64,000 bases of DNA from Azolla caroliniana. Taxonomy: Eukaryota; Plantae; Polypodiophyta. The translations under genes and the position numbers were made by a program. The stretch spans positions 14,818,001 through 14,882,000 of the forward strand of contig JBHGNT010000013.1 in assembly GCA_043228905.1 (NCBI GenBank). The letters run 5' to 3'. Below the pieces are notes generated by a model that saw only the letters and a program-made list of their open reading frames with translations, had not been told where the DNA came from and did not search any database. Below are positions 2,331 to 64,000 of the stretch, piece after piece (positions within the stretch are counted from its first letter, which is position 1; the number at the start of each line of letters is the position of its first letter).

Positions 2331-2369
<39 letters not shown>

Positions 2370-2574: not shown

Positions 2575-2623
<49 letters not shown>

Positions 2624-3028: not shown

Positions 3029-3039
3029 ATCCATATGGT

Positions 3040-13245: not shown

Positions 13246-13781
13246 TGTCGTGAAGATTTCCGGCTATAGTGTGAAACCGGGGTGGAATGGGCAAGTCGGC
13301 GATGTGCAACATGTGCACATGTATACTAGGAAATGGTGTATAGAAATAAGAGGGGAAATTTTATCCCACATTGTAAGGTCCCTCCTTCCTTGGGCTATAA
13401 AAGGAAGGGAGGGGGTCACTTATGAAGGGGTTGCCTATTTTATGTATGAAAGGCATACCACTTAGTCTAGAGTTCTTACCGTTTTAGGGTTAGGGTTTCG
13501 TTTATGGTTTTCCTTATTCATCTTCGGTTAGGGTTTTCTCATAGTTGTTTGGTGCGGCCCATGCGGCCACCATTGTTGTAATCATTCGTTTGTTTTAATA
13601 TATCTTGTTGAGCATATTGTCTCCGCCGATCTCTCCTTCTATGTCGTGATCTTATTCTTTCTTCTTCTCCTCTTGAGCTAAGCTTCCAAAACATATCTTA
13701 TTCTTTCTCCTCTACTCCCTAGTCCAAGACCCCCGTGGTCCCGCCCCTTCTACATGCACACACGTAATAACGCGACATATT

Positions 13782-13799
13782 TGGTGAACCCGACGTGAA
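13782..13799 (+). promoter_or_regulatory. Primer-binding site complementary to the 3' end of plant tRNA-Trp
   Basis: TGGTGAACCCGACGTGAA 4 nt after the LTR; identical copy at 55311. Confidence 0.9.
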
Positions 13800-13817
13800 G
13801 GGCGGCAAGGGAGCATG

Positions 13818-21447: not shown

Positions 21448-21479
21448 ATACCATGCTATATCATGCAATATCATGACAC

Positions 21480-24425: not shown

Positions 24426-24522
<97 letters not shown>

Positions 24523-33400: not shown

Positions 33401-34100
33401 TTATTCGTATTTGATGGTAGCCAGTACGGAGATCAAGTTTCGTAAAATACCGAGCTCCTTGGAGACGGTCAATTAGATCGTCAGCCCGGGGCAATGGGTA
33501 CGAATTCTTGATCGTCACTTTATTCAAGCGTCGGTAATTAATACACATACGCCATGTGCCCTCTTTCTTTTTAACCAAGAGAACTGGTGCACCCCATGGA
33601 GATTTACTATAACGTATATAACCCATTCGTAAATAGTCCTTGAGTTGCTTAGATACCTCATCTTCTTCGGATCGACTTAAGCGATACGGAGGTATACTTA
33701 TTGGTGCAACACCAGGTACAATATCTATACGATGGTCTATATTACGTTTAGGAGGTAACCCATCAGGTAGTTCACTTGGAAAAACATCACGAAAATCATT
33801 TAAGATTTCATCAAGTTGTTGTTCAAAATATGATAATTGAACCGGGACATTATCGATATTGTAAACGTGAATGTCCGGATCAAGTACACAATAAAATAAC
33901 GTAGAACAAGACAACTCGGATATTGATGGACACGAGGAAACAATCGAGAGGGATTGTTTTTTTACACATTGAATAAAATGCGTACAATCGTTTAGTACAA
34001 AAGAAATGGAATGGCGAACACAATCAATAAATAAAGAAGAGTTTTTATTATAAAACCAGGGATAACCCAGTATTACATCGGTGGTACAAAGATTCATTAC
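30486..34100 (-). mobile_element. Chromovirus 3' half: protease end, RT, RNase H, integrase, chromodomain, 3' LTR 30486-30941
   Basis: ORFs 32418-34097 (FLDD) and 30927-32138 (HPQSDGQTER, FCGPF, FKIKW..ATWE); PPT AGAGGGGGAG. Confidence 0.93.
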
Positions 34101-41877: not shown

Positions 41878-44800
41878 TGTTACACTTGCGTGTTCCTCTA
41901 GTAGCTTTGATGTGAACCATTTTCCCTATACATGGGCACTTTTTACTCTAGTGCTGGCTAGAGGTTTTTTCCCCATGTTACCACATACATGAGTCACTCA
42001 TATGTGGTGGTACTTTGTACTTAGGGATATATATTTCAGCTCCTATTTTTTTTAGGAACATTCATCAATAGAGAGCTATTCCAGCCATTGCCTTCCTTGT
42101 GTGAGTGCTTCTTTCTTTGAGCTTCTTGTGTGTTTCCCACTCTTCCTCACATACCCAACAGTGGTATCAAAGCCAAGTTCTTCATCCTCTCCATCTTCGG
42201 TTGTCCGCATCGCAGTGTCGCGGCGCGCGTGCACTTTTCATTGTGCAAATCAACTTCCGAATATAGAGAAGTGTATTTCAGCACTTGGAGCGCATTTTCA
42301 GCAGGTACCCTGCTGTTTTACCCCCATTTCGAAGCCGTTCGTGTAGTCGAAATCGTCATCCGAGTGATAGTTTGTGAGCTGCATTTTCAGCACTCATTTC
42401 CGATTTGTTGAGGTAATATTTTACCACTTTCTTGTTCTTTGGTAAAATGGCAAACAATGGTGATTTGTTTGGCATGCTTCAAGCTGAAGATAAGCTTGAT
42501 GGGACAAACTATCCAATGTGGTCCTACATGATGAAACACGTTCTTGTTGCCAAACAACTATGGAACATAGTGGTAGATGTAGATCGACGCCCCGCCGGTC
42601 CTACTACTTCACAGTCTACTATCACAGATACAGGTTCATCTTCGAGCACAGTGACTTCATCTACTCCACCAACACAAGAGCAACTTAGATGGGATGGAAA
42701 AGATGCTCAAGCTCATGCATTGATTGCACTTTCTGTGAAGCGTCATATAGTTCCACATATTCGGTCATGCTCTACGTCCAAACAAGCATGGGACACTCTT
42801 GCTTCGTTGTATGCCGTGCGTAACGAAGCACGTGTTGCATATTTGAGAAAGCAACTTGAGGATGTATATATGGCTGAAAATGAGTCGGTAGATGTGTATG
42901 TGACACGCATTAAAGATTTGAAAGAGCAATTGGCAAACATTGATGAGATCATTTCGAATACATCACTTGTCTCTACGTTGTTGAAAGGATTACCCGAATC
43001 TTTTCAAAGCTTTGCTACTACTATTCGTTTGGTTGCAAAAGGGAATACGTATATGTACGCATTTGATGAGGTTGTGTCTCTTCTTTTGCAAGAAGAACAA
43101 TCTAGAGTGAATAGAAGTGGTTTGATAGAGGGAACACAAGCACTTGCTATCTCACAAAAAGGAAAAGGCAAGCATGGTTCAGCTTTTGGTTCTTCAAAAC
43201 CAAAGCCTCAACCTCCCTCTTTCACTTATTCCTCTAATGATGGTGATTTGCAAAAGAAGAAAAGATGCAAATATTGTCGAAAGGTTGGCCATACGATTGA
43301 AGAATGTAGAAAGCTTGTTAAGCGCAATGAGAAGAAGAAGGAATCCGGCATGACCATTTCTGAAAATGTTTCAAGTGCAAAGAGTGATGAGGCCAACATG
43401 GCTCAAGATTATTGGGCATGTGTTGTTACATATCATTATGATGCATCATTGCACTCTAAATGTATGGTTGTAAGTGAGATTGATTCGGATTGGTTCTTTG
43501 ATAGTGGTGCTTCAAAGCACATTACTTCATGCAAAAGTTTTTTTGCATCCTTGAAAGATGCACCCAAAGGTGGACATGTGGTGTGTGCAAACAATGCCTC
43601 TTATCCTATCATTGGAGTAGGAGAAATTGAGCTTTCGGCTGCAAATGGAGGTGTTGTCATCTTAAAGAATGTATTGTATGTGCCCGGTATCAAGAAGAAC
43701 TTAATTTCGGTTCCTTTGATTGCCAAAGCCGGACTTCATGTACATTTTGTTGATGATAAGTGCATGGTTCACGATTATAGCAATGGTGATGTTATCGTGA
43801 TGTCCGGTACATTATGCAATGGCTTGTACCGTTTAGATACATACAAGAGGGCTTCTCTAAATGCCTTGGCTGTACATACTTCTTCCATGGCTGAAATGGA
43901 GCTTTGGCATGCTCGTTTTGGTCACTTGAACTTCAATAGTTTGCTTCACTTGCAAAAGAAGGATATGGTTATTGGGTTGCCTACACTTGAGTTCATTGAA
44001 AAACATGCATGTGAAGGTTGCATTCTTGGAAAAATGCATCGTGCTTCTTTTCCAAAAGATAGTCATACACACACTACAAGAAAATTACAACTTGTTCATA
44101 GTGATGTGTGTGGTCCTGTAAAGACTCCATCTTTTGGAAAGCATGTATATTTTGTTACCTTCATTGATGATGCTACTCGTCATACATGGGTGTATCCTAT
44201 GAAAGCAAAGAATGAAGTCTTTTCTTGCTTCAAATCATTTTTAGCTATGGCTGAAAATTTTTCCGCAAATAAGCTCTTGACTCTACGCACGGATCGTGGT
44301 GGCGAATATATGTCACATGAGTTTAATGCTTTTCTTTGTGAAAGAGGTATTTTACATCAATGTACGGTGCCATATACACCTCAACAAAATGGTGTTGCAG
44401 AACGCAAAAATAGAACACTCTTAGAGATGGCACGATGTATGGTTAAAGGAAAGCATCTTCCTAACAAGTTTTGGATGGAAGCGGTTATGTGTGCAAATTA
44501 TGTGTTGAATCGTTGCCCTACAAAAGCGTTGAGAGTCATTACGCCATATGAGGCTTGGAATGGACATAAACCTATGGTTAGTCATATGCGTGTGTTCGGT
44601 TGTTTGGCATATGCTCTTGTGCCATCACAACAACGTCACAAACTTGATGACAAGGCAAAGAAATGCATATTTGTTGGTTATAGTGCGGAAAGTAAGGGAT
44701 ATCGTTTGTATCATCCATTGACGGACACAATTATTGTGAGTCGAGATGTGGTATTTGCTGAAAATTCAGCTTTCCCTTTTCTTGAATGCAAAAAACAACC

Positions 44801-47047
44801 AACAGTTAGCTCACAAGATGTGTTTGATACACTCATGCCTTTGTTCCAAAGTGCTGCGCTTGACCATGGACATGTAGACCAGCCAAGTGAGTCTCAAAGG
44901 GATAAAAATTTCCAGCAAATAAGTGTTGAAAATGCACGAAATGTCCAACCAAATGTGGCTGAAAATGAGCATGAAATTCAGCCCACGCATGATGTACATA
45001 TTGAAGATGTATTACATAATGAACGTATGGCTATCGAGAGGTCACAAACTATGCCGAGGTGGCTGAAACAAACTTTGCAAGATAGCAAATTGAGTGCACC
45101 TTTACTTGGTAAAACAAGATCAAGCTCTCGCCATGCATCAGGTAATTTTGTGGATTATTCTATTGTTGCAATAGCATGTAATGAGGAGCCACTTACTTTT
45201 GAAGATGCATGTGATGATCCACATTGGATGAGTGCTATGCAATCAGAAATGGATTCCATTCATAAAAATGGTACTTGGGAGTTATGTGAATTGCCAAAAG
45301 GAAAGAATGTGATTGGTACTAGGTGGGTTTACAAGATTAAACGAAAGCCCGATGGTAGTATTGATCGCTACAAAGCTAGATTGGTTGCCAAAGGATATGC
45401 CCAACAATATGGCATTGATTATGAGGAAACTTTTGCACCTACTTCACGCATGACTACCATTCGTACCGTGGTTGCATTGGTTGCCCAAAGAGGTTGGAAA
45501 ATGCATCAATTGGACATAAAAACAGCCTTTTTAAATGGTGATTTGCAAGAAGAGGTTTATGTGAAGCAACCTCCTGGATTTGCTACGAAAGAGAAAGAGC
45601 ATATGGTTTGTCGCTTGCATAAGGCCTTGTATGGTCTCAAGCAAGCTCCGCGTGCATGGTATGAAAAAATCCATAAGCACTTGATTTCTCTTGGCTTCAC
45701 ATGTAGTCCGATTGAAAGCACACTTTATGTACGCAAAGATGGGGCTGATCTTCTAGTGCTCGTTCTTTATGTTGATGACATACTCTTGACTGGGTCATGT
45801 GATGCAAAACTCGATTTTCTTATGGCTGATTTGCAGCATACTTTTGAAGTCACTTATCTTGGTCTTTTGAGCTACTATCTTGGCATCCAGTTTGTATCCG
45901 TTGAGGGGGGAATGTTTATCCATCAAGGAAAGTATGTTGAAAAACTACTTCAGCGTTTTGACTTTGAGGATTGCAAGCCGGTTTATACACCTGTGGAGAC
46001 AGGATTTAGGTTCTCTGTTGAGGATTCTAGTGATGCGTTTGATACTTCTCTTTATCAACAAGCTGTGGGATGTCTTATATATGCATGCAATACAAGGCCG
46101 GATATACAGTATGCAGTCTCCCAATTGAGTCGATTCATGCATAGCCCTGGCACTAAGCATTGGCAAGCAGTGAAACGTGTGTTCAGATATCTTAGAGGCA
46201 CTTTGAGCTTGGGTCTCTTTTATGGCAGAGATACTCAGCCATGCTTGCATGCTTTTACAGATAGTGATTGGGCTGGTTGTTATGATACTCGCGTGTCCAC
46301 TAGTGGTAATTGCTTTTTCTTTGGAAACTCATGTATATCTTGGTTGAGTAAAAAGCAACCTACAGTGGCGACATCAAGTTGTGAAGCTGAGTATAGGGCA
46401 GTTTTCACAACTACAGTGGAGTGTATATGGCTAAGACGCCTTTTGATGGATCTTTGCATGGAGATTGAAGTTGCTACACGTATTCTCACAGATAGTCAGA
46501 GTGCATTGGCTGTTGCACGAAATCCTGTATTTCATGCACGGACCAAACACATTGAGGTGCATTATCACTATGTGAGAGAGCGCTTTCATGCAGGAGATAT
46601 TGATTTGGTATATGTGCCTACACAAGATAACGTGGCAGACATATTCACCAAAGCTCTTCCACGAGAAAAGTTTGAAGCTTTTCGCAAAGCTTTAGGCTTA
46701 TTGCCTTGTGGGGGCTGATCTGTCACTCCTTATACATGTTCACATCATTCGCTCCAGGGGGGTTTGTTACACTTGCGTGTTCCTCTAGTAGCTTTGATGT
46801 GAACCATTTTCCCTATACATGGGCACTTTTTACTCTAGTGCTGGCTAGAGGTTTTTTCCCCATGTTACCACATACATGAGTCACTCATATGTGGTGGTAC
46901 TTAGTACTTAGGGATATATATTTCAGCTCCTATTTTTTTTAGGAACATTCATCAATAGAGAGCTATTCCAGCCATTGCCTTCCTTGTGTGAGTGCTTCTT
47001 TCTTTGAGCTTCTTGTGTGTTTCCCACTCTTCCTCACATACCCAACA
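41878..47047 (+). mobile_element. Intact young Ty1/Copia element
   Basis: 283-bp LTRs 41878-42160 and 46765-47047 (one difference seen by eye); TSD ACGAC; PBS TGGTATCAAAGCC; PPT AGGGGGG. Confidence 0.97.
42447..46718 (+). CDS. Copia gag-pol polyprotein (uninterrupted)
   Basis: CKYCRKVGH, FDSGAS, HSDV..TDRGGEY..GVAER, YVDD, TDSDW..ADIFTK. Confidence 0.97.
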   Translation: MANNGDLFGMLQAEDKLDGTNYPMWSYMMKHVLVAKQLWNIVVDVDRRPAGPTTSQSTITDTGSSSSTVTSSTPPTQEQLRWDGKDAQAHALIALSVKRHIVPHIRSCSTSKQAWDTLASLYAVRNEARVAYLRKQLEDVYMAENESVDVYVTRIKDLKEQLANIDEIISNTSLVSTLLKGLPESFQSFATTIRLVAKGNTYMYAFDEVVSLLLQEEQSRVNRSGLIEGTQALAISQKGKGKHGSAFGSSKPKPQPPSFTYSSNDGDLQKKKRCKYCRKVGHTIEECRKLVKRNEKKKESGMTISENVSSAKSDEANMAQDYWACVVTYHYDASLHSKCMVVSEIDSDWFFDSGASKHITSCKSFFASLKDAPKGGHVVCANNASYPIIGVGEIELSAANGGVVILKNVLYVPGIKKNLISVPLIAKAGLHVHFVDDKCMVHDYSNGDVIVMSGTLCNGLYRLDTYKRASLNALAVHTSSMAEMELWHARFGHLNFNSLLHLQKKDMVIGLPTLEFIEKHACEGCILGKMHRASFPKDSHTHTTRKLQLVHSDVCGPVKTPSFGKHVYFVTFIDDATRHTWVYPMKAKNEVFSCFKSFLAMAENFSANKLLTLRTDRGGEYMSHEFNAFLCERGILHQCTVPYTPQQNGVAERKNRTLLEMARCMVKGKHLPNKFWMEAVMCANYVLNRCPTKALRVITPYEAWNGHKPMVSHMRVFGCLAYALVPSQQRHKLDDKAKKCIFVGYSAESKGYRLYHPLTDTIIVSRDVVFAENSAFPFLECKKQPTVSSQDVFDTLMPLFQSAALDHGHVDQPSESQRDKNFQQISVENARNVQPNVAENEHEIQPTHDVHIEDVLHNERMAIERSQTMPRWLKQTLQDSKLSAPLLGKTRSSSRHASGNFVDYSIVAIACNEEPLTFEDACDDPHWMSAMQSEMDSIHKNGTWELCELPKGKNVIGTRWVYKIKRKPDGSIDRYKARLVAKGYAQQYGIDYEETFAPTSRMTTIRTVVALVAQRGWKMHQLDIKTAFLNGDLQEEVYVKQPPGFATKEKEHMVCRLHKALYGLKQAPRAWYEKIHKHLISLGFTCSPIESTLYVRKDGADLLVLVLYVDDILLTGSCDAKLDFLMADLQHTFEVTYLGLLSYYLGIQFVSVEGGMFIHQGKYVEKLLQRFDFEDCKPVYTPVETGFRFSVEDSSDAFDTSLYQQAVGCLIYACNTRPDIQYAVSQLSRFMHSPGTKHWQAVKRVFRYLRGTLSLGLFYGRDTQPCLHAFTDSDWAGCYDTRVSTSGNCFFFGNSCISWLSKKQPTVATSSCEAEYRAVFTTTVECIWLRRLLMDLCMEIEVATRILTDSQSALAVARNPVFHARTKHIEVHYHYVRERFHAGDIDLVYVPTQDNVADIFTKALPREKFEAFRKALGLLPCGG

Positions 47048-48873: not shown

Positions 48874-51456
48874 TGTTGAGCGGCAAGCTCAACCGGATCC
48901 GGATCGGCATCCAGAAGGATGAGCCGGATCAGTGAGCTGGGGAGCTGGTTAGCTGGATCAAGCAGTAACCAGAAGCCAAGTAGCAGCTAGTCTACTAGGG
49001 AGTTAATATCTCGTAGTTAGTGTTAGATGCTCGTGTGAGCGTTGAAGTACACCGTACTTCTGTCAGTCCGGATGGACTTGTATAAAAGTGTTCACTGAAC
49101 ACATACGATGTACAGACTGAGTAGTATTTTTTGAATTACGTTTTTGTGTGCTCTCTCTCTCTCTGTCTCTCCCGCGTACTGTTAAGCTCTCCATTAAACC
49201 TGTTTTTCTGTTTTCTATTGCTTCCACACGCTATTTGTTTCTACATGGTATCAGAGCATGAGCGTTGAAGACCTCTGCAGCCGACATTCGATTTCACAAG
49301 ACAAACCCTAAAGGTTGTGAGAACAGAACAGTAGAAAAAATAAAAATAAAAATGGATAGAGGAATGGCAAGCTCGCTCCCGGTGGAGAAGCTCGACAGAA
49401 CCAACTACGCATCTTGGTCTTACAAGATGCACCAGTACCTGCTTGGGCATGGGTACTGGAGCTATGTCGACGGAGCTAACGACATAGCACCTGATGTGGC
49501 ACACATGGACTTCCCAGTGTGGGAACAAGCGACAAGTAGGGTGATGTACTGCTTCGCATCTAGTGTCGGAGACCAACTGCTAAGCCATATCCGAGATGCC
49601 AAGACGCCAAAGGAAGCTTGGGGAAACCTGAAGAAGGTTTTCGCCACAAGCACAATGGCCAAGAAGCTGCAACTTAGACAAGAGCTAAGTAATGTCCGAC
49701 AGAAAAATCTGTCTGTGGCCGATTACAGGGCCCGAATCAAGGAAATTTGTGACTCACTCGGCTCCGTCAATGTAAACATTGAGGAGGACGAGATGGTGCA
49801 AGTGTGCCTTGGTGGGCTAGCGTCCAGGTTCGGAGCTTTCCGAACGGCGGTCTGTACGAGGGAGAATACGTCGTCATTTTTCGACTTACAATCGATGCTC
49901 CTTGTAGAGGAGAACCACGCCGGTGCGTCAACAAGTGCACCCACCGACAGCCAGATGTTGCACACAGAGGTGGATTGGCCCCATGGGCATGGTGGACGAA
50001 GCGGGTCGGTTCGCAATGGTAGCGGTCGGCAAGAGCAAGACCGACAGCACAGAGACCGTGCTGACAGCAGTTCCGGGACCTCCACAACCAAGGGGATTCA
50101 AGGTAGCGCCGGAGGCCGGCAAGACAAATCTGCCATGGAATGTTGGTACTGTGGCAAAAAAGGGCCACAGAGAAAGCAAGTGCTGGAAGAAACGCGCCGA
50201 TTCAGATAGATCTGGATCCGGAAAACCGGTCGGGAGAACCGGCAAAGCTCGCACTACGCGCAAGGATCGAAAGGATCTGGAACTGGGAAGACCGGTAAGG
50301 GGCCAGCCTTGGTGATGAAGCACAAGGCAAATTTGATGAAGAAGACCACTTCCAAATCGGAGGAAGTGTGGTGCATTGATTCCGGTGCATCAAATCACAT
50401 GACGAACCACAAAGAGTGGTTTTCCTTCCTGGAGAAACCGGAACAACCGGGAGTTGTCGAAACCAGAGACGACACTCCTCACCCAATCATGCATGTCGGT
50501 GAAGTCCCTTTGAGCCACGCCGAATAGAGGGGGAAGATGATGAACGTATTACACGTTCCGACTATCACGAAGAACCTGGTGTCGGTCGGACAAATCGTCG
50601 ACCAGGGAATGCAGGTGCGGTTTACGCACCTCGGGTGCTTCATCGAGGAGGAGGGCCAGATTATTGCACAAGGGCACAGAGACAGGAGGATGTTCATCCT
50701 CGACACCAATGACGTTGGCACCGCTTTGTTCGCCAAAGGACAGAAGATTGAATCGTACATCGATCTCTGGCACAAGCAGATCGGCCACGTCAATTACCAG
50801 AGGTTTCAAGACCTACAAACGAAACAAGTTGTTTTCGTTTTGTCGAAGTTCATTGGCCGGAAGGCCCAAGTATGTGAAGCCTGCCAACTCGGGAAGCAAC
50901 ACCAGCTTCCATTCCCCACCGAACGAAACCGTAGCCGTTACAAGCTCGACCTTATTCATTCGGATGTATGGGGACCGGCACAGAACGTGAGTCTTGGCGG
51001 GAGTCCATACTTCGTCTCCTTCATCGACAACTATAGCCGACACACATTGATCTACCTCATTGAGCGAAAGAGCGAAGTCTTCGACTGTTTCTGGAACCTC
51101 CAAAGCATAGTGGAATGGGAATTGGAGAGGAAGATCAAGTGCCTGCGGTCAGATGGCGGAAAAAAATATTTTTCCAGCCAATTCAACAGTTATTTGCAGC
51201 AAACAGGAATTTGGAGAGAGTTAAGCTACAGATACACACCGGAGCAAAACGGTGTGGCCGAAAGGAAGAACCGGTCGCTTGTCGACGCGGCAAGGGAAAT
51301 GCTAGAAGAGAAGAGCATGCCCCATTTCTACAGGGCGGTCGTCTACATCCAAAACCGGATCGGTGACAAGGTGTCCGCGCATGAGCTGTATTTTGTGCGC
51401 AAGCCGAATTTGAGACACCTTCGGATTTTCGGCAACATAGCATATGTGCATGTGCC
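48874..51456 (+). mobile_element. Decayed Ty1/Copia 5' half (LTR 48874-49245, gag, protease, integrase)
   Basis: PBS TGGTATCAGAGC at 49246; EKLDRTNYASW, IDSGASNHM, GVAERKNR; cut at YVHVP|. Confidence 0.92.
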
Positions 51457-54400
51457 TGGTAACTCTTAGGGCCGGACAATGGCCTAACACAGGGTGTCTA
51501 CGGAAGACACTTCACCAAAGGGGTGTTACGGCAAGAGGAGTAGGCTCAACGATTAATCCGACTTAATTAGGTTACTTAGCAAGATCGTCCTTAATAATCA
51601 CACGCGTAAGATATAACAATGAATGCAGAACGGCAATTAACACAGAGAGATAAAAAACACTAAGCTTCATTAATTATCCGCCTCTCATTTCATTGTATCC
51701 GGGCCTTTAAATAGGTTTCCGGTCTGTAGTACAAAACCCGCACCTGTTCGGGATCGGTCCGGATCCGGAACGGCATACCGATTCCGGTCCGTCCGTCCAC
51801 ACTCATAGCTTACTTACAACCATTCCTAATAATTAATTAACTCCTCCGTTTCACACTCTGGACTCCTTTGTTGGCCGGTAACACATGGCACGCCCGTGGG
51901 ACAGTACCTTGTACGTCGAATCCACCATCCGACCCTTGCTATTCTTCAACCAAAATATCCAGAATGCTTTGTTCGAGAGTCTCCAATGGTTCATCTGGAA
52001 TTGGTTGTTGTTGTTGTTGTGGTTGTTGCTGCTGTTGTTGCTGCTCTGTTGATGGCTGCTGCGACTGGTCCTTTGATGGCTGCTGTGGTTGCTCCTCCGT
52101 TTGTTGCTCTGACACCGGCATAGTGGTCTCCGGTTGACTGGTTCCGGCCTGGCCCTCGGCCGGCGACGGTTCCTCATCACTAAGGTTAACCATTGTCGCT
52201 TCCCGTGCTTTTTCTTCCCGAACCCGGGACCGGTCGTAGCTTTCAAACTGGATTTGAGCGTCCAGCCTATCATCGTCTAGCTGAGCTACGAGTTGCCGGA
52301 CCTGCGCCAGCTGTTCATCCGCCAGGACTTCGAAGTCTTTGGCCAGCTCGTCCCGTATGGCGGTGAAGTCCTCGGAAGTCAACGTATAACAATCATCTCC
52401 TTCCTTCCACCGGTTTGCCACGTCTGCCCGTAGCAATTGGAGTTCCGCCGTATTTTGTGCCCACTTTGTCCACCATCTTATGGAGCTTTCGTCAATCAAG
52501 CGTTTTGTCTGATTCAACCATGCCCGGAGGATGCACTGAATCCGGCCCGTTCCCAATTGCGATTTGATCTCCGCCGCTTGCCGTTCCTCCTTCAATTGCT
52601 TGATGATTTTGACATTGTCTTCCGCCTGCTCCTTGTAATGCGTCAATTGCCTTTGATATGTGCTTTGTAATTTTTGCAATACCGTTGACGCTCTCTCCTT
52701 TTCTTCCTGCTGTTGCCTCTGGAGCTCCATCCGGACCTTCTCCGCCTCGTCCAACCGTCTTGTATTTTCCGCTCGTTCGTCGGCAAGCGCCGTCGCCGCC
52801 TGATCAACTTCCTGATAGAGCTCGGCCACCCGTTCCTTATGCTCCGTTTCCAGCCGTTTGTAGTCCCGGTGCAGGTGCTCAAAATCATCTGTCTTTTGTT
52901 TGAGCCGTGCGTTGATCTGTCGACGGGCCCAGTCCTCGTGGTCCTTCTGCTGGCGGAACTCTTCCTTTAGCCGTTCAATTTCCGTTTCCGCCGTCTTCTG
53001 CAGCTTGTCCTTTTCCTGCAGCACTTTGTCTTTTTCCTGCCTTAGCCGGCCGTACACTTGATGGCCTTTCCGGAGGCTCTCCTCTGCCCGGCGGAGGTTC
53101 TCAGCAGTCTTCTTTAATTCTGCTTCGGGCGCTGTCTTCAATTCCCATTCCCGGCTCCTTAGCACTTCTTGTGTGGCAAGTTCATCTCTCAATTCCGCAA
53201 GCTCCTGGGCTTGCGCCGCATCTCTCTCTGGAACGGTTTCTGTTGCCGGGGTCTTATTAGTATGTACAGGTTGGTCGGGTTCTTTATACTGTACACTTAC
53301 CGGAGTCATCGGTGATTGGATCTGTGTTGCCGTTAAGGCCATTTTGGCCATTTCTGTCGTGACCTGATCCAAGTCTTTTTCAAGGCACCAGATTCTGGAC
53401 CGGGCCGTCTCTAGTTGTTCGGTTGTGACGAGCAACCGTTCGTTGTGCGCTCTTTCTTCCGCTTCAATATACCCCACTGCTCCGGCAATCTGTTCGCCTA
53501 TCCACCGGAGCCACAGGCTACTGGTGCCTTGTTGTAGCGTTTGCACAGAGGTTTGACGGATGGGCTCGCTTGTAGATGGGTGGTCCTGCCTGATTGTGCC
53601 GAGTTGCAATTCCGTTTCTGCCCGTGGACCACCCTACTGTCCTGGTTCCCCTTGCGCTTCTTCTTGGTTGGCCGAGGGAGGCTGTATTGACCTTTCCGGC
53701 TCTGGCGGAATGGGACTTGCCGGTGCTGCCGGTGGTGCAAGGGCTTCTGATTCCGGTGCCATGCGCTCCGGTTCCGGTTCCTCCCTTGGCGTGGGAGTCT
53801 CAGATGGGGAGCCGGTGTTCCCTCCGTCTGAGGGTCCAATTGTTTCCCGGCTGCCTCAACGGTCCTTGCCGACGATCGTCGTTGGAGGTGCTCCGTAGGC
53901 TCCTCCTCTATTTCCTCTTCCTGAGTCCCGGCATTGAGTTTTGCCGCCAAGGGGTCCGCTTCTCTATTCACCGGTCGGCGGAGTGTAACATTTACGAGCC
54001 GTACCAGTGGTTCCTCCTGCGCATTTGTTGGCCGCTTCCGGCTAGCGCTCTCCTTTCCCGCCTGTTCTGCGTCCGCCGCCTTCCCCTTAGTGGCCTTAGA
54101 GGCCAACAACTGTTGTCTTTTGGAAGCAGTCTTTGGGGTGTCGTCCGCCACTCTTCCCCGCTTCTTGGGCTGAACGGGCTCGACGTGTGGCACAAGCAAG
54201 GTGAGCCACTGCGTTACTGCGTGCCATATCCTCCGTCCTTCTCGGCCTTCTTTGCCGTCTTTTCCTTTGACGATCTCGATCGCCGCACACAAACCGTCTG
54301 CGATCAATATTGGCCAATCCACCTTGATCCCTTCATAGGTGGCGATGATCATCCCTGCCCGGTTCTGTGGCATGACAGGGGGTCTAGGGTACACATGGTC

Positions 54401-54681
54401 CTATTCGTGGAGCACACGGGCAATCTCGCGGAACAACATATCTCCGCCGCCCTGTGTCCGGTAGCCCTTGCTGGCTAGGGAGTACTCACCAAAATACTTG
54501 ATGAGTTGCTCCGAGGTCGGATTGTCGATCGTGAATATGCCTCCCTCCGGAAGGTCTGTTAACGCACGGATCGCCTCATCCGTTGTCGTAGTGTATTTCG
54601 TACACTACGTGAAAAAGTAAAAATAATATAACCGATTTAATTACATATAAATAAATAAAATAAGAATATCAAGATATTTAT

Positions 54682-54752
54682 CACGTGCATAGGGCAAGAT
54701 TCGAACCTTGTACCTCCACGTAGCCAAACCTCAACTTTACCATTATGCTACC
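54682..54752 (-). promoter_or_regulatory. tRNA-like A/B-box cassette antisense in 5' LTR U3 (copy at 62931-63002)
   Basis: TAGCATAATGGTAA...GGAGGTACAAGGTTCGAATC. Confidence 0.75.
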
Positions 54753-55344
54753 TTATCTTTAGTGTTCTATAAATAGATTTAATAATTATAAGTGCTTTAT
54801 TTGCGCCTACCTTTATTAAAAGGTAAATCATGTATTTTTAGAGTGCGTGAATATTTTATAGAAAAACGCAAGCAACTAAAAAGTGACTCATGCACATCTA
54901 GCGTGCATGAGCACTATATTTAGCAAATAAAAGCAAGGATTAAAAAAGCATTACATGCACATTTAGTGTGCATGAACGTATTAGAAAAAGCATGTAGCTA
55001 TGCTTAGTCTCTCCCATCACTATATAAGGATGGGGAGCACATTGTAGTTTTTGTTGATTATTTTTCTATAATGATCAATCAATCTAAAATATTTGTGGGA
55101 TTCACGAATTTGCTAAAAATAATTCTCTCTTACTACCTAAATATTGACTAAATATACTAAACTCGTGGGATTCACGAGATTCTTATCTTATAACTCTTTA
55201 TACCTGTTCTTTACTAGTCTTATTTGTATTTTTCTTTCTCCTAGTCCAAAACCTCGGCGGTTCCCACCCGACTCACGCAAACGATCCGGAGCCGAAAGGC
55301 ACGACACAGTTGGTGAACCCGACGTGAAGGCGGGTGGCAAGGAG

Positions 55345-58300
55345 ATGGAGAATCAAGAAGAGGCAATGAGTATAACGATGATGATGATGTTCGAGCGGAT
55401 GCTACAAGAACAACGAGTGATGTCGGAGATCACGGGGGCAGTAAAGCGTGTTGAGAAGCAAGCTCAACATGGTATGTGATGCTTATGAGAAATAAGCTAT
55501 AGTAGCTATTTAGCTACTAGTGAACAAAAAGGTAAAACAGCTATTTAGCTATGGACAGCTAATTAGCGACTGAACAGCTATTTAGCTAGTGACAGCTAAT
55601 TAGCTAGTGAACAGCTATTTAGCGACTGATAGCTAATTAGCTACTGGCAGCTAATTAGCTGCATGTGTAATAACTTATGACTTAGGTAAAAGTAAGTGAG
55701 AGTGAATAGAAAAGAAGCAGTAAGAAAAAACAGAGAATAGTGAGTAGAGAACTCTGAGCGAGAGTGAGAGACCAGAAGACTGACGAGAGCAAGTTGAGCT
55801 CTACATGTAATAGAAGAAAACCATTTTGCTACTACAGAGGTAAGTCCCCTTTCCTTTCTCTGTCTGTTTAGAGCACCCTAACGATCCAGCACACTACGAT
55901 CCGCCGCGCGCACAAAAGAAGAGCCCGAGTGCCTTCTTCACGTTTTCTTAACATGGTATCAGAGCAGAGTAGCTCGTAAGGAAGAGTATAGCAGTGCCTT
56001 AATCTGAGAAAGTTATTTCTCTGGTTGCTGATCAGAAATCAGAAAGTTACTTGTTGAAGTAACTAAAGCAAAACCCTGGTTTTTGGAAGGAAAAAAATGG
56101 TTGCAAAGAATGTAGGCCAAATGGTCACAGAGAAATTAGATAAAAACAATTTCCCGGCGTGGAAATTCAGAATGACAAACTTTCTGATGGGGAAAGGATA
56201 CGGGGATTACATTGAAGGAGACCTAGAAGAGGCTCCAGAGATCCCAGAACAGAATGCAACAGCTGCACATATTAAGGCATTTAAAGATTGGAATCAAGGG
56301 GCAAGGAAAGTAATGCATTGGCTATCACTCAGCATCTCAGATTCAATGCTTGGGCATATACAAGATGCTATGCTCCCAAAAGAAGCTTGGGACAACTTGG
56401 TAAAACTGTTTGCTGTGAACACAAAGGCTAGAAAGCTCCAGTTAAAGACTGAGCTAAATACCTTGGAGAAAGGTAAGATGTCAATAAATGAATATGCCCT
56501 AAAAATCAAGAGTATATGTGAATCACTTGCTTCTATCAATGTGAAGATAGAAGATGATGACAAAGTGGAAATATGCTTAAGAGGCTTAGGACCTCAATAC
56601 AAGAGTTTTAAAACTTCTATGCTCACAAGGGATAGTATCCCAAGTTTTTCAGATCTGGTCTCAATGCTTGTGGTAGAGGAAAGGAATCAGATGGATGATG
56701 CAAATAAAGGAAACTCAGAGAACGAGGGGCAAGCCCTCTATAATAATGCCGGAAGAGGCCGAGGAAGAGGCCATGGAAGATTTGGCTCAGGAAGAACCAA
56801 TAATAATGGCTTTCAAGGAAGAGGACAACAAGCTCATAGAGGAGGAAACAACAACAGAGGCAAGGGGAGCAACCGAGGTAGAGGTAAGCAAACTTATGTA
56901 AATGATGATGGCTGCTGGTATTGTGGTAAACCAGGCCATACACAGGCTGAATGTTACAAGAAACAAAATGATGAGAAAAGAGGAAAAGGACAACAGAGTA
57001 ACTATGCCTCTACTAGTGAAGATTGTGAAAAGGAAGGTGTTTTTGTAGTGCAACATGAGATAGCAGTAGTGGCTGAAAGCTCACAGAAATGTAATGAAGA
57101 GTTTACGTGGTATGTAGACTCGGGGGCATCTAACCATATGACTGGACATGCAAATTGGTTTGAGAGTTTAAGAGAACCAGAGGTTCCTGGTTATGTACAA
57201 ACAGGTGATGACACAACTCACCAAATAAAACATGTTGGAGATATCCCATTGTGGGAAGAAAGAGGAAAAACCAAGTATATGTTGAATGTGATGCATGTTC
57301 CAAACCTTGCTAAGAATCTGATTTCTGTTGGACAGATTGTAGAGCAAGGTATGCAAGTGAAGTTTAAGCAAAGTGGATGCTATATAGAAAAGAATGGGAA
57401 GCTCATTGCAAAAGGGAAGAGACAAGGAAGAATGTTTATCTTGGATGTAGAAATGCCCAAACAGTTTTCAGCCATGTTTGCAAATGGAACGAGTGTAATC
57501 TCAGATGTGGAAATGTGGCATAAAAGGATTGGCCATATAAGTATGCAAACATTAAAGAATATGTTGAGAAAAGATGCAGTGGCTGGACTGCCAAACTTGA
57601 AAAAGTGTGAAATGGGAAAAGTATGTGAAGCATGTCAATATGGTAAGCAAAACAGGTTGCCATTCCCTCATGAGAGACATGTAAGCAAAAATCTGTTGGA
57701 TTTGGTACATACAGATGTATGGGGACCAACAAAGAATGCATCTATTGATGGATGCAGATTTTATGTTACATTTATTGATGATTGTTCACGGAAGACATGG
57801 GTGTACTTCATGAAGGAGAAAAGTGAAGTATTTGACTGTTTTCGTAAGTTTAAATGCATGGTAGAAAAGCAGGCTGGTACAAGGATAAAATGTTTGAGAT
57901 CTGATGGAGGAGGAGAGTATTTCTCCAATGAATTTTCTGATTTTTTGTGTAATCAGGGAATAAGAAGACAGTTCACATGCCGATATACTCCACAACAAAA
58001 TGGAGTTGCTGAGAGGAAAAACAGAACTTTGGTGAACATAGCAAGGGCAATGATGACTGAGAAGAACATGCCATTATACTATTGGGCAGAAGCTGTAAAT
58101 ACAGCAAATTACATTTTAAATAGATGTATTACATCAGGAGTACATGAGGCAACTCCTGAAGAGTGTTTTTATGGCAGGAAGCCTAGCTTACAACACTTGA
58201 AAGTGTTTGGATGCCTTGCATATGTACATGTGCCTGCAGAAGTAAGAAGTAAGTTGGATCCAAAGGCAGAAAAATGTATTTTTGTTGGCTATTCAGAAGA

Positions 58301-61300
58301 ACAAAAAGGCTATAGATGCTATAACCCTGTAACAAAGAAGATTGTGACAAGTAGGGATGTAATCTTTGATGAGTTAGCCAGCTGGTATAGTCCAAAACAG
58401 AATCCAGAGACTGATGAAGACAATGAGATTGAAGACAAAGACAAATCTAAAAATGTAGAAGACTGCCACAGAGATGGCAGCAAGGTTGGACAGCAAAGTC
58501 CAACATCAACAGAATGTTCTGGACCATCAAAAAGCTCAGATGGTAAATCTGATTCAAATTCATGGAGTGGAAAAACTGGACAGAAAAAATCTGATGACAA
58601 AAAAGGAAAACAGAAAATGCCAGAGTATGAAATCCCGGATGACCTATCAAAAAACATGGAAGATGAAGATTCAGATATGTCTTTGGATGATTTCCTTGGA
58701 ATACAGGAAATGAAAATCCCTGGTATGGAAAAGGCAATAAAGAATGCAAATCAGAAACTGAGAAGATCAGATAGAGAGAAAAAGACTGTGGAAAGATTTG
58801 GGTATGATACATATATGGCTATGCACTATGCATATATGTCTAAGGTGGTACAGATCCCTGACCCAAACAGCTTTGAAGAAGCAAAATCTGAGAAGAAATG
58901 GATGGATGCAATGCAAGAAGAGATTGATGCATTGGCTGAGAACAAAACGTGGGATTTAGTGAAGTTACCAAAAGAGAAAAATGTGGTAGGCTGCAAATGG
59001 GTCTACAAGACAAAGCATGACTTCAATGGGAATGTAAGTAGACATAAAGCAAGATTGGTTGCAAAAGGATATGCTCAGATGCAAGGGATTGATTATGATG
59101 AGACTTTTGCACCGGTTGCAAAGATGGCAACCTTGAGAACACTACTTGCTGTAGGAGCAGCCAGAAAATGGATTTTGCATCACATGGATGTAAAAAATGC
59201 TTTTTTACATGGTAACTTGGAAGAAGAAGTGTATATGAGTCAACCACCAGGTTTTGAAGATAAGAAACATCCTGATTATGTATGTAAGCTGAAAAAAGCT
59301 CTCTATGGACTGAAACAGGCACCAAGAGCATGGCACAGAGAACTTTCAGATTCTCTGAAAAATCTTGGTTTCAAAATGTCAAAAGTTGATCCTTCTTTGT
59401 ATGTAAAAAGTGAAAATGATTGCATTGTTATTATTCTGATTTATGTAGATGATTTGATTATTGGAGGAGATTCCGTGGATGAAATAAGAAAGTTGAAAAA
59501 AAATCTGGAAATGCAGTTTCATATGAAAGATTTGGGAGATCTGAGATATTTTCTTGGTATTGAAATCATCAGATCTGAGAGTGGTATATGTATGTTGCAA
59601 AAACAGTATGCAACAATTATGTTGAAAAAGTATGGTATGCTTGGATGCAAACCTATTGCTGTACCACTTGATAAAAACTGCAAGTTGAGGGTTGATTTGG
59701 GAGCCAAGATAGAAGATGTAAACATGTACAGGTCCATGGTGGGCAACCTTATTTATTTGACTATAACAAGACCTGATTTGAGCTATGCTGTTGGATTAGT
59801 CAGCCAGTTTATGCAACAGCCAACAAAGCCACATTTGGACTGCATCAGAAGGACTCTGAGGTATGTAAAAGCAACTCAGAACTTTGGACTATTTTACAGG
59901 GCTGATCTAGACATAAATCTGGAAGGATATACAGATGCTGATTGGGCTGGAAGCCAAACAGACAGGAGATCCACAAGTGGATACATGTTTACCTTGGGAA
60001 GTGCAGGAATTTCATGGAGTAGCACGAAACAGGCTACTGTTGCATTGTCTAGTACAGAAGCTGAGTATAGAGGGGTTGCAATAGCCACATGTGAAGAAGT
60101 ATGGATCAGAAGACTGCTTGCTGATCTGGGAGTATATATAGATGGTGTTGTCACAATCTGGTGTGACAATATGAGCAGCATTCATCTTGCAAAGAACCCA
60201 GTGTTCCATGCAAGAACAAAGCACATTGAGGTGCATTATCACTTTGTTAGAGAAAAAGTGATGGAAGGTGAAGTTGATCTGGTGTATGTGAATACAAATC
60301 AGCAGGTTGCTGATATCCTTACGAAGGGATTGAGTGTGGAAAAACATACACAGTTTCGGAACATGATGGGAGTTGTAAACATTGATGAGATGGCTAAAAA
60401 GCAAAATGGAAAAGAAGATTGAAGAGAACCTCAAGCAAGAATAAGTTGAGCTTGAGGGGGAGTGTTGAGAAGCAAGCTCAACATGGTATGTGATGCTTAT
60501 GAGAAATAAGCTATAGTAGCTATTTAGCTACTAGTGAACAAAAAGGTAAAACAGCTATTTAGCTATGGACAGCTAATTAGCGACTGAACAGCTATTTAGC
60601 TAGTGACAGCTAATTAGCTAGTGAACAGCTATTTAGCGACTGACAGCTAATTAGCTACTGGCAGCTAATTAGCTGCATGTGTAATAACTTATGACTTAGG
60701 TAAAAGTAAGTGAGAGTGAATAGAAAAGAAGCAGTAAGAAAAAACAGAGAATAGTGAGTAGAGAACTCTGAGAGAGAGTGAGAGACCAGAAGACTGACGA
60801 GAGCAAGTTGAGCTCTACATGTAATAGAAGAAAACCATTTTGCTACTACAGAGGTAAGTCCCCTTTCCTTTCTCTGTCTGTTTAGAGCACCCTAACGATC
60901 CAGCACACTACGATCCGCCGCGCGCACAAAAGAAGAGCCCGAGTGCCTTCTTCACGTTTTCTTAACAAAGCGGCTCGTACAACGAAACAGACAATTCAAC
61001 GGAAACGATGTGTCACGCTATCTACGTGACTACAAGGCGGAGATGATACGATGTGGGATACCGGAAGGATTGCAAGTGACATCCTTCAGTCGGGTGGCCA
61101 TGGATGAGCTACAAGAGAGAATCCACAAGATACGGCAACAAAACTCGACATGGGGGTCATTCGAAGAAGCTTTACGAGAGGCATATGATTACAAGAGATC
61201 AAAGGGACAAGATCGGCGAAAATTCGACGAATGGGTGGCATCGGAGAAGACCCACCGAAGTGCAACACAAGCATTCCTAGAGTTCGAGCATCGTTTTGCT

Positions 61301-62881
61301 CGACTCTCGGAGCGGGAACAACGATTGGTGGGAGAGGATAAAGTCCTAATGTTCGTAAAATCGATCGATCGAAAAGAAAGGATGGACATCGGGATCGAAC
61401 TCGAAGACGATGAAGGTACGAATGGTCTTACCGAAGATTGGGCCGAAGTCCAAAGGGTATGCCGGAGACATGATGAGAGGAAGATGAGAATCTTGTCAAC
61501 GACATGGCCAATGAAGGATGGTCGATTGAAGACAAACGATGGAGCCGATATGAAGGCTGAAATACAACATGATGGTGCGACGGAAGAGGGTGTAAAACAA
61601 GCTACCCTCTTGTCTTGCGAAAGAACAACGACGAAGGATAAGGCCGATAACCCAAGTGTAGAAGAAGATTTCAGAATACAAGTGTCCGAAACATCGGGTG
61701 AAAAAGGGGTAAGCATAATTGATGCAGTGAAAGAGAGCAAAGAGGACTTGATTGAGGAGGTCACCAAGAAAGATGACATCGAATCGAAGGTGGCTATGGA
61801 CGAATCAATGGCGGATGGCCACATCGAGATTTCTTCACCGCTGATTCTAGAGACTCCGGCGGTTGCGTTCGAAAGGCAACGTGAGACCGAAGAGACGGAA
61901 GGTGGTGGAGAGAAAACAAAGGTCGAAGCCGATGCATACGAAGGAGAGATAGCCAAGGAGGTGGCTATGGGTGAAACAACGGAGGATGATAATACCGAGG
62001 ATTCCTGCCCACTAATCCTAGAGACTTCGGCGGTTGTGTCTGAGAAGCAACGTGAGACCGGAGAGACGGGAGGTGGCGGCAAGAAAGGTAAAGTCGGAAG
62101 CTGGTTCGGATGGAAGGTGATTCGGACGGGATTCCGATCCGAAAGAAAGCCGAACCGGGTAAAAGAGAATTCGGCCGAAAGACGAACCGAAAGAAAGCCG
62201 AACCGAAAGGAAGAGAATTCGACCGAAAGACGACACAAACGAAAGCCAACCCGAAAAGGGGTCGACTCGGTCAAAACCGATCGACTAAGTCTGACTTGGC
62301 CGAACGCGAATATGGATGGAGGCCGACCTAGCCGAAAGCCGATCGGACGAGACCGATCCGGAAAGAAGCTAATCCGACTCAACCGGAGGTTGGACCGGTC
62401 GAGGCTGGTGAAAACGAGGAAAAGAAAGCCAACCGAAACCGAAACCGATAGATCGAAACCGGGCCGGAAGGAGACTGACTCAAGCGAAACCGAACAACCG
62501 ATTCCGATTCGGCCGAATACGAATCCGATCGGAAGCCGATCAAACCGAAAGTCGATCGGACGAGAGCGATCCGGAAAAAAGTCAAGGTTGATGAAGACAA
62601 GAAAGAGGCCAGTAAAAGACACTACCACAAATGACAAGGGCCAAGAATATGACGAGAGAGAACAAAGAATATGGTGGATCGGATGGCGACAATGGTTCGG
62701 GTGGAAAGAATGGGTCTACTCAAAATGGAGAGACAAAGTTGACATAGCGGGACAAACGGAGGATGAAGGGGAGACAACGAGCATCGGCAACTTCGGCACA
62801 TACCGGAGGATGTGCGGGTTCGGAGGGGGCGAGTGTCGTAGTGTATTTCGTACACTACGTGAAAAAGTAAAAATAATATAA
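55345..62881 (+). CDS. Gag-like protein with repetitive acidic then basic tail, ~670 aa once the Copia insert is removed
   Basis: MENQEE..AVKR (55345-55448) joins in frame to LVQRNRQFNGNDVSRYLRDYKAEM and the 623-aa ORF 61010-62881. Confidence 0.8.
55495..55662. repeat. Array of palindromic AGCTAWTTAGC(T) units in Copia U3 (copy at ~60509-60676)
   Basis: About 9 alternating CAGCTAATTAGC / CAGCTATTTAGC units. Confidence 0.9.
56097..60422 (+). CDS. Copia gag-pol polyprotein (uninterrupted, 1441 aa)
   Basis: CWYCGKPGH, VDSGASNHM, HTDVWGP..SDGGGEY..GVAER, YVDD, TDADW..ADILTK. Confidence 0.97.
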   Translation: MVAKNVGQMVTEKLDKNNFPAWKFRMTNFLMGKGYGDYIEGDLEEAPEIPEQNATAAHIKAFKDWNQGARKVMHWLSLSISDSMLGHIQDAMLPKEAWDNLVKLFAVNTKARKLQLKTELNTLEKGKMSINEYALKIKSICESLASINVKIEDDDKVEICLRGLGPQYKSFKTSMLTRDSIPSFSDLVSMLVVEERNQMDDANKGNSENEGQALYNNAGRGRGRGHGRFGSGRTNNNGFQGRGQQAHRGGNNNRGKGSNRGRGKQTYVNDDGCWYCGKPGHTQAECYKKQNDEKRGKGQQSNYASTSEDCEKEGVFVVQHEIAVVAESSQKCNEEFTWYVDSGASNHMTGHANWFESLREPEVPGYVQTGDDTTHQIKHVGDIPLWEERGKTKYMLNVMHVPNLAKNLISVGQIVEQGMQVKFKQSGCYIEKNGKLIAKGKRQGRMFILDVEMPKQFSAMFANGTSVISDVEMWHKRIGHISMQTLKNMLRKDAVAGLPNLKKCEMGKVCEACQYGKQNRLPFPHERHVSKNLLDLVHTDVWGPTKNASIDGCRFYVTFIDDCSRKTWVYFMKEKSEVFDCFRKFKCMVEKQAGTRIKCLRSDGGGEYFSNEFSDFLCNQGIRRQFTCRYTPQQNGVAERKNRTLVNIARAMMTEKNMPLYYWAEAVNTANYILNRCITSGVHEATPEECFYGRKPSLQHLKVFGCLAYVHVPAEVRSKLDPKAEKCIFVGYSEEQKGYRCYNPVTKKIVTSRDVIFDELASWYSPKQNPETDEDNEIEDKDKSKNVEDCHRDGSKVGQQSPTSTECSGPSKSSDGKSDSNSWSGKTGQKKSDDKKGKQKMPEYEIPDDLSKNMEDEDSDMSLDDFLGIQEMKIPGMEKAIKNANQKLRRSDREKKTVERFGYDTYMAMHYAYMSKVVQIPDPNSFEEAKSEKKWMDAMQEEIDALAENKTWDLVKLPKEKNVVGCKWVYKTKHDFNGNVSRHKARLVAKGYAQMQGIDYDETFAPVAKMATLRTLLAVGAARKWILHHMDVKNAFLHGNLEEEVYMSQPPGFEDKKHPDYVCKLKKALYGLKQAPRAWHRELSDSLKNLGFKMSKVDPSLYVKSENDCIVIILIYVDDLIIGGDSVDEIRKLKKNLEMQFHMKDLGDLRYFLGIEIIRSESGICMLQKQYATIMLKKYGMLGCKPIAVPLDKNCKLRVDLGAKIEDVNMYRSMVGNLIYLTITRPDLSYAVGLVSQFMQQPTKPHLDCIRRTLRYVKATQNFGLFYRADLDINLEGYTDADWAGSQTDRRSTSGYMFTLGSAGISWSSTKQATVALSSTEAEYRGVAIATCEEVWIRRLLADLGVYIDGVVTIWCDNMSSIHLAKNPVFHARTKHIEVHYHFVREKVMEGEVDLVYVNTNQQVADILTKGLSVEKHTQFRNMMGVVNIDEMAKKQNGKED

Positions 62882-64000
62882 CCGATTTAATTACATATAA
62901 ATAAAAAAATAAGAATATCAAGATATTTATCACGTGCATAGGGCAAGATTCGAACCTTGTACCTCCATGTAGCCAAACCTCAACTTTACCATTATGCTAC
63001 CTTATCTTTGGTGTTCTATAAATAGATTTAATAACTATAAGTGCTTTACTTGCGCCTACCTTTATTAAAAGGTAAATCATGTATTTTTAGAGTGCGTGAA
63101 TATTTTATAGAAAAACGCAAGCAACTAAAAAGTGACTCATGCACATCTAGTGTGCATGAGCACTATATTTAGCAAATAAAAGCAAGGATTAGAAAAGCAT
63201 TACATGCACATTTAGTGTGCATGAACGTATTAGAAAAAGCATGTAGCTATGCTTAGTCTCTCCCATCACTATATAAGGATGGGGAGCACATTGTAGTTTT
63301 TGTTGATTATTTTTCTATAATGATCAATCAATCTAAAATATTCGTGGGATTCACGAATTTGCTAAAAATAATTCTCTCTTACTACCTAAATATTGACTAA
63401 ATATACTAAACTCGTGGGATTCACGAGATTCTTATCTTATAACTCTTTATACCTGTTCTTTACTAGTCTTATTTGTATTTTTCTTTCTCCTAGTCCAAAA
63501 CCTCGGCGGTTCCCACCCGACTCACGCAAACGATCCGGAGCTGAAAGGCACGACACCGTTATGACCTCTGTGTCGATTTCTTTGATCACCTTGTCGGCTT
63601 CTTTGTGTGGCGGTACCTCCATAATCGTCAAGAAGCCCTCGAGCCCGTGTTGCTTTAGCCATTTCTTGGCGGCTTCCGACAACGTTTGCGGGTCCATGTC
63701 TGTGTCGAGGTCAGATTGTGGTGGCGAGGTTGGCTGGTAATGAGAGTGAGATTGAGAGAGAGAGAGTTCAGAAAGTGGGGGTTCTCTGTGCGTAGGTTCT
63801 CGTCTGATGATCTTCCAGCGCCTTGGTGCTTCTGTGCTCCTAGGTTCGCGAAAGTAGAGGGTCTCCACGCGCAGTGGTTTTTCTCTGTGCATTCTGGCGC
63901 CTTTTTCGAGTGTGTGCACGTCGTGTACTAAAATAGCATTATGTCCTGTGGTGGCGCTTAAATGCCCACTACGTACCTTTTCGCTCCTCGCTCTTTCGTC

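Follow-up and report, generated by a model that had tools for sequence, protein, structure and literature searches.

A tRNA-like site in place of the polypurine tract in an Athila-like Ty3/gypsy element of Azolla caroliniana, with a possible role in plus-strand priming

The retroelement locus and its polarity

In the window (the whole stretch of 64,000 nucleotides that was analysed), plant retroelements lie nested in one another; they are of copia, chromovirus, LINE and non-autonomous LTR type. The subject of this work is an LTR that has a copia integrase gene as its insertion target, together with the border beside it and a long additional reading frame (the extra ORF). A second LTR with a similar border is present near position 17,600. 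The relevant features are as follows:

51457–51883, minus strand: 3' LTR of a Ty3/gypsy element, assigned from its relatives (427 bp, TG...CA)
51706–51715, minus strand: TATA-like box, reading CCTATTTAAA, 169 nt into the LTR and in the sense that gag-pol has in the relatives
51884–51885, minus strand: 2-nt spacer from CCA to the TG of the LTR (the usual primer-to-LTR geometry)
51886–51895, minus strand: tail, equal to tRNA nt 67–76 and ending in CCA (10 nt); the minus-strand DNA reads as a candidate 10-nt primer-binding site
51896–51900, minus strand: block equal to tRNA nt 61–65 (3' strand of the T stem), with nt 66 missing from the copy
51900–51917, minus strand: hairpin of 7 bp with a 1-nt bulge and a loop of 3–4 nt, at the place of tRNA nt 58–60
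51917–51925, minus strand: block equal to tRNA nt 49–57 (5' strand of the T stem plus TTCG), with a 1-nt insertion allowed in three aligned rows
51939–54583, minus strand: 3' part of the extra ORF, in sense orientation, with coiled coil and acidic end; broken
54584–63560, plus strand: nested, unrelated LTR element that splits the extra ORF (728-bp LTRs 98.6% alike, 4-bp target duplication)
55448–60967: copia inside the nested element
63561–63994, minus strand: 5' part of the extra ORF (ATG at 63697, N-terminal helical domain, conserved open frame upstream)
17160–17600, minus strand: 3' LTR of a second family with a like border (left end approximate)
17603–17642, minus strand: second tail, hairpin and T-arm block; an ORF with a like acidic end stops directly before them

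The minus strand enters the LTR as GTCCCACGGGCGTGCCA-TG-TGTT, and the 10-mer occurs once in the 64 kb with both strands counted. All signals from which the first-pass annotation had read the LTR as minus-oriented, including CCTATTTAAA at 51715–51706, are present in the sequence; a similar TATA-like box lies 193 nt into the LTR of three relatives (L004–L006). The annotation had also described a minus-strand frame of ~930 codons running toward the LTR. We recovered it as a frame of about 927 codons, from the ATG at 63697 to a stop at 51939, once the nested insertion at 54584–63560 was removed. In the window copy the frame is broken by this insertion, by stops at 54403 and 53636 and by a frame change near 53770–53810. 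Contigs bridge both halves of the ORF across the insertion, and loose ends at 54574 were seen in 3 of the 4 runs shown.

Relatives were collected by scanning metagenome contigs with the extra ORF, and the best 80 of 103 were retained as loci; the same scan of viral contigs gave no relative. A gag/pol match (at least 40% identity) was present upstream of the ORF in 29 of the 80 loci, and in 28 of these 29 it was on the same strand as the ORF. In L002, a single frame of 1937 aa that immediately precedes the extra ORF, in the same orientation, contains gag, zinc knuckle, RT, RNase H and integrase domains; a protease domain was called in L023, and the two loci together give the order gag-PR-RT-RH-INT. 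Locus L004 carries pol, ORF, motif, LTR, primer-binding site (PBS) and gag on one strand throughout. The order ORF-motif-LTR-PBS is the same in L005–L007, L031 and L044, with gag found after the PBS in L004, L006 and L031; contigs in which the LTR is followed by gag were probably collapsed in assembly (both LTRs merged), and they belong to one accession series. The LTRs of L004–L007 and L015, which are positioned between the extra ORF and PBS plus gag, are 77–80% identical to the window LTR over about 350 nt. Loose ends of eight contigs at the left edge of the window LTR resemble a PBS-side border and not a purine tract (agreement 0.64; one of four DNA runs). The check in related copies that the first-pass annotation had proposed thus gave gag-pol on the ORF strand and a separate PBS at the other LTR border. 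From the same-strand gag-pol and the LTR-PBS order of the relatives it follows that 51457–51883 is the 3' LTR of a minus-strand element; its polarity is taken from these relatives, the gag-pol and 5' LTR of the window copy lying beyond the window.

Some loci show other arrangements. At 1852–3419 of the L003 contig, the motif, LTR, PBS and gag of a related element are on the minus strand and adjoin the 5' part of the present family's extra ORF in back-to-back orientation. This contig is the closest match to window positions 63561–64000 (90%), and its ORF 5' part lies opposite the gag of another element; it may represent a flipped antisense-ORF subfamily, as in Retand, or a chimeric contig. In L007 (1–2357) the extra ORF is preceded by a pol from a distant lineage, similar to the one at window 34035–36830, and in L061 a gag-protease segment is joined straight to the extra ORF; both are read as nested, chimeric or deleted forms. 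The pol pieces of the window at 21471–24551, 30927–34139 and 34035–36830 were considered as the element's own and rejected, as they are of chromovirus type or of a distant lineage.

No Pfam family was found for the extra ORF. Its N-terminal domain gave weak atlas leads to Transposase_32 and ATHILA clusters (0.87 and 0.86). The predicted structure of this domain from the relative P0013, which corresponds to window 63697–63561 plus 54583–54040 on the minus strand, had a pLDDT of 83.6. Its best fold match was 9lnk_A (VANC21; Z 6.6, rmsd 3.8, 172 residues aligned) at 9% identity and a Z under 8, the next structural match having a Z of 3.0; Foldseek against the PDB returned nothing at E 0.001 or below. 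VANC21 of VANDAL21 is described as a transposon anti-silencing protein (PMC5735166, available text), and the 9lnk structure is the DNA-bound form. A role of the extra ORF product as a DNA-binding anti-silencing factor would, on this predicted fold, be a lead only. None of four relatives has a membrane helix in the extra ORF, which is therefore not env-like. A hydrophobic-acidic ORF end (like ILEED-stop) stands just before the motif in the window (51939–51965 and 17647–17670) and in P0007 and P0011, and such an end is kept across families whose ORFs are otherwise distant.

Other parts of the window are recorded here for completeness. The elements at 54584–63560 and 13246–17159 are related LTR elements in which no pol was found; they have a common PBS, which we take to be of Trp type. 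The former is flanked by a 4-bp target duplication, CCGT, of the kind given for Phygy. Both its LTRs carry box-A-like and box-B-like motifs with tRNA-like spacing (54684–54752, minus strand, repeated at about 62934–63002); ARAGORN and Rfam made no call there, and the motifs are like Helenus or like a SINE caught in an LTR. The copia elements at 55448–60967 and 41878–47047 are young: their LTRs are 99.6% alike, and their frames of 1451 and 1433 aa are open. Positions 1–1179 (minus strand) are part of a host TPR plus DnaJ gene, and 1862–1961 is a 100-base assembly gap.

The inner border of the LTR

As the first-pass annotation had pointed out, no purine tract precedes the TG of the LTR at 51457–51883: purines make up 9 of the 20 preceding nucleotides (45%), and the longest purine run within 300 nt of the TG is 7 nt long and 208 nt away. 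The 20 nt before the LTR of two control elements in the window are 70% and 75% purine; a third control, the copia at 46765, is 45% purine, yet has a run of six G at its end. A polypurine tract (PPT) was likewise absent from 10 of 10 related loci, where the 20 nt before TG are 40–55% purine with a longest run of 3 nt. An A-rich tract is present between pol and the extra ORF.

What occupies the border is a three-block copy of the 3' half of a tRNA (nt 49–57, 61–65 and 67–76). It had been described as the 3' end of tRNA-Arg, 17 nt long and one base short. The missing base is accounted for by nt 66, which is absent from all 15 aligned sites (14 distinct, about six lineages). The length has to be revised, since the tRNA-like part, with T-arm block and hairpin, occupies 51886–51925, about 40 nt. 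Identities were calculated against a phage tRNA-Arg(TCT), found by a tRNA-pattern scan of viral contigs and standing in for the tRNA of the host; over the 15 sites the mean was 95% for nt 49–57, 73% for nt 58–60, 99% for nt 61–65 and 95% for nt 67–76. The last 28 nt of this phage tRNA equal the motif, hairpin and nt 66 excepted. The same scan yielded one further phage tRNA, called Glu(TTC), and one chance match. The isoacceptor is therefore not fixed: the earlier Arg(UCU) label is putative and agrees with the phage tRNA-Arg(TCT). Plant tRNA-Arg(UCU) presumably ends like the tail, and tRNA-Arg(UCG) like the 5' PBS.

The motif was kept in 12 of 12 testable loci (those with the ORF end and at least 60 nt beyond it, a rule that excluded 9 more loci as too short), in families whose LTRs are unlike and whose ORFs range from 58% down to 25% identity to the query. 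The spacer is 2 nt in 14 of the 15 aligned sites, the exception being one decayed row. The LTR at 17160–17600 is unlike that at 51457–51883, similarity being confined to about 45 nt around the tRNA-like site, and the observation that the copy at 17603 has the same length holds for its geometry as well. Positions 51878–51925 were matched by many contigs that diverge on both flanks (four DNA runs, four organism labels), and the sole variant at a frequency of at least 2% was C to T at 51895 (four DNA runs); the depth peak over the motif was not taken as a count because of edge effects on so short a stretch. Judged by these comparisons, the motif is conserved beyond chance. Searches for it elsewhere returned little: ARAGORN reported no tRNA for the window or for the relatives' loci, an Rfam scan of 51400–52100 gave nothing meaningful, a border-pattern scan of viral contigs gave one unrelated match only, a pattern scan of prokaryote genomes gave 0 matches, and a sequence-based literature search gave marker primers only, without a tRNA label.

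Over the 15 sites, 99% of the hairpin cells are paired, with two-sided changes in 4 of the 7 pairs; slid registers are only 33–48% paired, and RNAalifold independently predicts the same hairpin. The covariation score of the whole structure was reached by 0 of 500 shuffles, a control that is inflated by kinship, and two further covariation measures did not exceed the shuffles (223/500 and 384/500). Of the four non-Watson-Crick hairpin cells, three would be G.U pairs when read as RNA. In RNA the two T-stem blocks could also pair with each other (86% of cells), and this outer pairing shows no two-sided changes. The minimum-energy RNA fold predicted for the window copy differs from the hairpin. 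The region of nt 58–60 changes in step with the hairpin, while the tRNA-pairing blocks are 95–99% conserved. The commonest change in the tail is G to A at nt 67 or 69, which leaves a T.G wobble against the tRNA; the tails of the 17603 copy and of L003 contain changes that would mismatch the phage tRNA-Arg(TCT).

At the other end of the element, the 5' PBS of the relatives is about 10 nt long, lies 7–11 nt from the CA of the LTR and leads into gag. A conserved CTGCA is found 5–8 nt 3' of the PBS in L002, L004–L007, L031 and L044, and is possibly a second contact for the minus-strand primer. The 5' PBS is of two types among the families, the tail being constant. In L044 and L003 the tail can pair with the PBS at 9 of 10 positions; in L004 and L031 there are 5 Watson-Crick pairs plus one wobble out of 10, and the minus-strand primer of these two families has only its last 4 nt in common with the tail.

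Possible routes of plus-strand priming

The copy of a tRNA 3' end at the place of the PPT makes it likely that a host tRNA initiates not only the first DNA strand but the second one too. The site has the place and spacing at which the plus strand must start, and the motif, being tRNA-sense in the element RNA, is complementary to tRNA only in minus-strand DNA. On balance we therefore favour a model in which a host tRNA binds the conserved site in minus-strand DNA and primes the plus strand. A first tRNA would start minus-strand synthesis from the 10-nt 5' PBS. Once the RNA has been cleared by RNase H, a second tRNA, likely Arg-UCU, would pair with the DNA through nt 67–76, 61–65 and 49–57, with its nt 66 bulged and the DNA hairpin looped out opposite nt 58–60. 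The RT would then extend the CCA end, adding 2 nt and then the TG of the LTR, and RNase H would subsequently remove the tRNA.

Methylation of A58 blocks Watson-Crick pairing. This modification is widespread in eukaryotic tRNA, according to the available text of PMC10275265. The hairpin thus stands opposite the place (nt 58–60) where a methylated A58 could not pair anyway, and the combination of 95–99% conserved blocks with a free nt 58–60 region fits pairing with an unchanging outside molecule. With RNA energies as a proxy and the phage tRNA as partner, a tRNA-DNA duplex with a three-way junction was predicted to form for 4 of 4 sites tried. The second proposal of the first-pass annotation, a minus-strand element whose plus strand is primed by a tRNA or tRNA mimic, stands in its anatomy (minus-strand element, PBS at the far LTR, tRNA-like site at the place of the PPT), and the priming itself is what we infer. 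Overall, the anatomy of the element is well supported, and the primer's identity is deduced from it; the complete picture, a gypsy lineage of seed-free plants that has no PPT, uses host tRNAs to prime both strands and has a DNA site that skips the unpairable A58, we consider about evenly poised between right and wrong.

Other explanations of the motif have to be weighed against priming by a host tRNA. The main rival, a possible though less likely route, is that the element RNA itself, structured by hairpin and CCA, survives RNase H, is cut 2 nt after the CCA by a specificity like that of tRNA-primer removal, and primes the plus strand as a PPT substitute derived from a captured tRNA end. Its position and geometry would be those of a PPT, it needs no extra host molecule, and the T-stem blocks can pair in RNA; the G.U in RNA sense in 3 of the 4 wobble-type cells is a weak hint that the hairpin folds in RNA. 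Such a primer leaves unexplained the 95% tRNA identity of the unpaired blocks and the break at nt 58–60. Moreover, the outer stem shows no two-sided change, the minimum-energy fold of the window copy is another one, and the sharing of only the last 4 nt with the minus-strand primer in L004 and L031 would be odd for one cleavage specificity. The two routes may hold in part together, for example if RNA folding frees the DNA site. Pairing of the tRNA-like 3' piece with the 5' PBS, for minus-strand self-priming or RNA circularisation, is the least probable of the readings, being scarcely credible: the 9 of 10 pairs in L044 and L003 speak for it, but the pairing is weak in L004 and L031, the families closest to the window copy, and the plus strand would be left without a primer. 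Since the PBS type varies while the tail stays, the tail is not maintained by pairing to the PBS.

It is improbable that the motif has another job (a packaging or dimer signal, a TFIIIC box-B site or a small-RNA decoy) with the plus strand starting otherwise. The GTTCG block resembles box B, and the A-rich tract between pol and the extra ORF could prime internally; against this, 4 of 15 sites do not keep the box-B-like A, the U3 end cannot be made from an internal tract, and the CCA is fixed 2 nt from a TG whose LTR end must be defined somehow. The remaining proposal, also from the first-pass annotation, took the element to be Tat-like and on the plus strand, with the site as its Arg PBS and an antisense gene at its 5' end. 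On the plus strand the site is indeed a textbook PBS after a TG...CA repeat, an antisense position of the ORF relative to a gag does occur in L003, and the far end of the window copy is past 64000. This proposal is refuted for the family by the relatives and is very improbable overall: their gag-pol is upstream of the ORF and in its sense (28 of 29 loci on the same strand), the border across the LTR is a PBS followed by gag with no PPT, in agreement with the loose contig ends at the left edge, no extra RNase H was detected, and the TATA-like box has the sense of gag.

PPT priming is treated as general for LTR retrotransposons and retroviruses, and a high-copy lineage without a PPT shows that the step is replaceable. 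Either of the two leading models, with a tRNA or with element RNA as primer, would be a priming route of which we found no description; if priming of both strands by host tRNAs is true, the RNase H of this LTR retroelement would have ceased to produce the plus-strand primer. In practice, annotation tools will take the site for a PBS and place the elements on the wrong strand, or will reject them because they lack a PPT.

Classification and comparison with known systems

The relatives have the gag-PR-RT-RH-INT order of Ty3/gypsy elements (L002 and L023; the pol of the window copy is outside the window), a TG...CA LTR and an inner-edge PBS that leads into gag. The PPT, which is a general feature of Ty3/gypsy elements and not a classification criterion, is absent. 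No extra RNase H was found in the L002 polyprotein and its three spacers (no RNase H family match at E up to 1), nor a chromodomain in the polyprotein. In RT trees, made by a quick method without REXdb-labelled references, the element falls on the OTA side, together with rows of Riccia, Adiantum and Marchantia that stand beside or around seed-plant rows without extra RNase H; the only row with an extra RNase H falls outside (support 92, long branch), and row P0261 is in the second tree only. The nearest named relatives of the RT are liverwort and fern proteins of about 50% identity. By these sequence characters the element is Athila-like Ty3/gypsy, and we do not file it as Athila, Tat or Phygy.

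Both primer sites of the element look to be of Arg type. For Athila, the primers listed are tRNA-Asp, tRNA-Asn and tRNA-Ala (Neumann et al. 2019, PMC6317226, available text). In that account Athila, a non-chromovirus OTA lineage, resembles the element in lacking an extra RNase H and a chromodomain, and in having a single gag-pol frame and a long extra ORF 3' of pol; the element differs by the absent PPT. A target duplication of 5 bp is a further character of Athila. TatIII, Ogre and Retand also have extra ORFs, and Arg primers are common in them, but the Tat clades are there defined by the extra RNase H that the element is without (PMC6317226). Extra ORFs of the Retand type are given as antisense in the accessible part of PMC7264820, whereas that of the element is sense in 28 of 29 loci. 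Phygy is described as having no extra ORF, a Trp primer and a 4-bp NCGN target (PMC6317226), in contrast to the extra ORF of 900–1100 codons here.

Yeast Ty3 is alike in its LTRs, the tRNA-type PBS at the 5' LTR, the gag-PR-RT-RH-INT order and a plus-strand origin beside the 3' LTR (PMC5371799, PMC7264820). In the available text of these reviews the plus-strand primer is an RNase H-resistant purine tract, and exceptions in priming are given for the minus strand only; Ty3 has the purine tract where the element has a tRNA-derived site. Within the text accessible to us, most subscription journals and Repbase Reports being outside its scope, no precedent for such plus-strand priming was found. The bipartite PBS of Ty1 and Ty3 is similar in combining a short acceptor-end match with a separate T-arm match, the halves being split by a loop in Ty1 and by distance in Ty3 (PMC5371799, available text). 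The Ty1 and Ty3 sites have their complementarity to tRNA at the RNA level and function in minus-strand synthesis, whereas the site of the element is tRNA-sense in its RNA and lies at the plus-strand origin. The Helenus TRIMs (Kojima 2024, PMC10886601, as far as its text is available) are likewise LTR elements with tRNA-derived sequence. Helenus carries its tRNA-like part within the LTR and has a PBS as well as a PPT, and the author excludes a priming role; Helenus is non-coding and under 1 kb, whereas the element described here codes for gag-pol and has its tRNA-like part outside the LTR, replacing the PPT.
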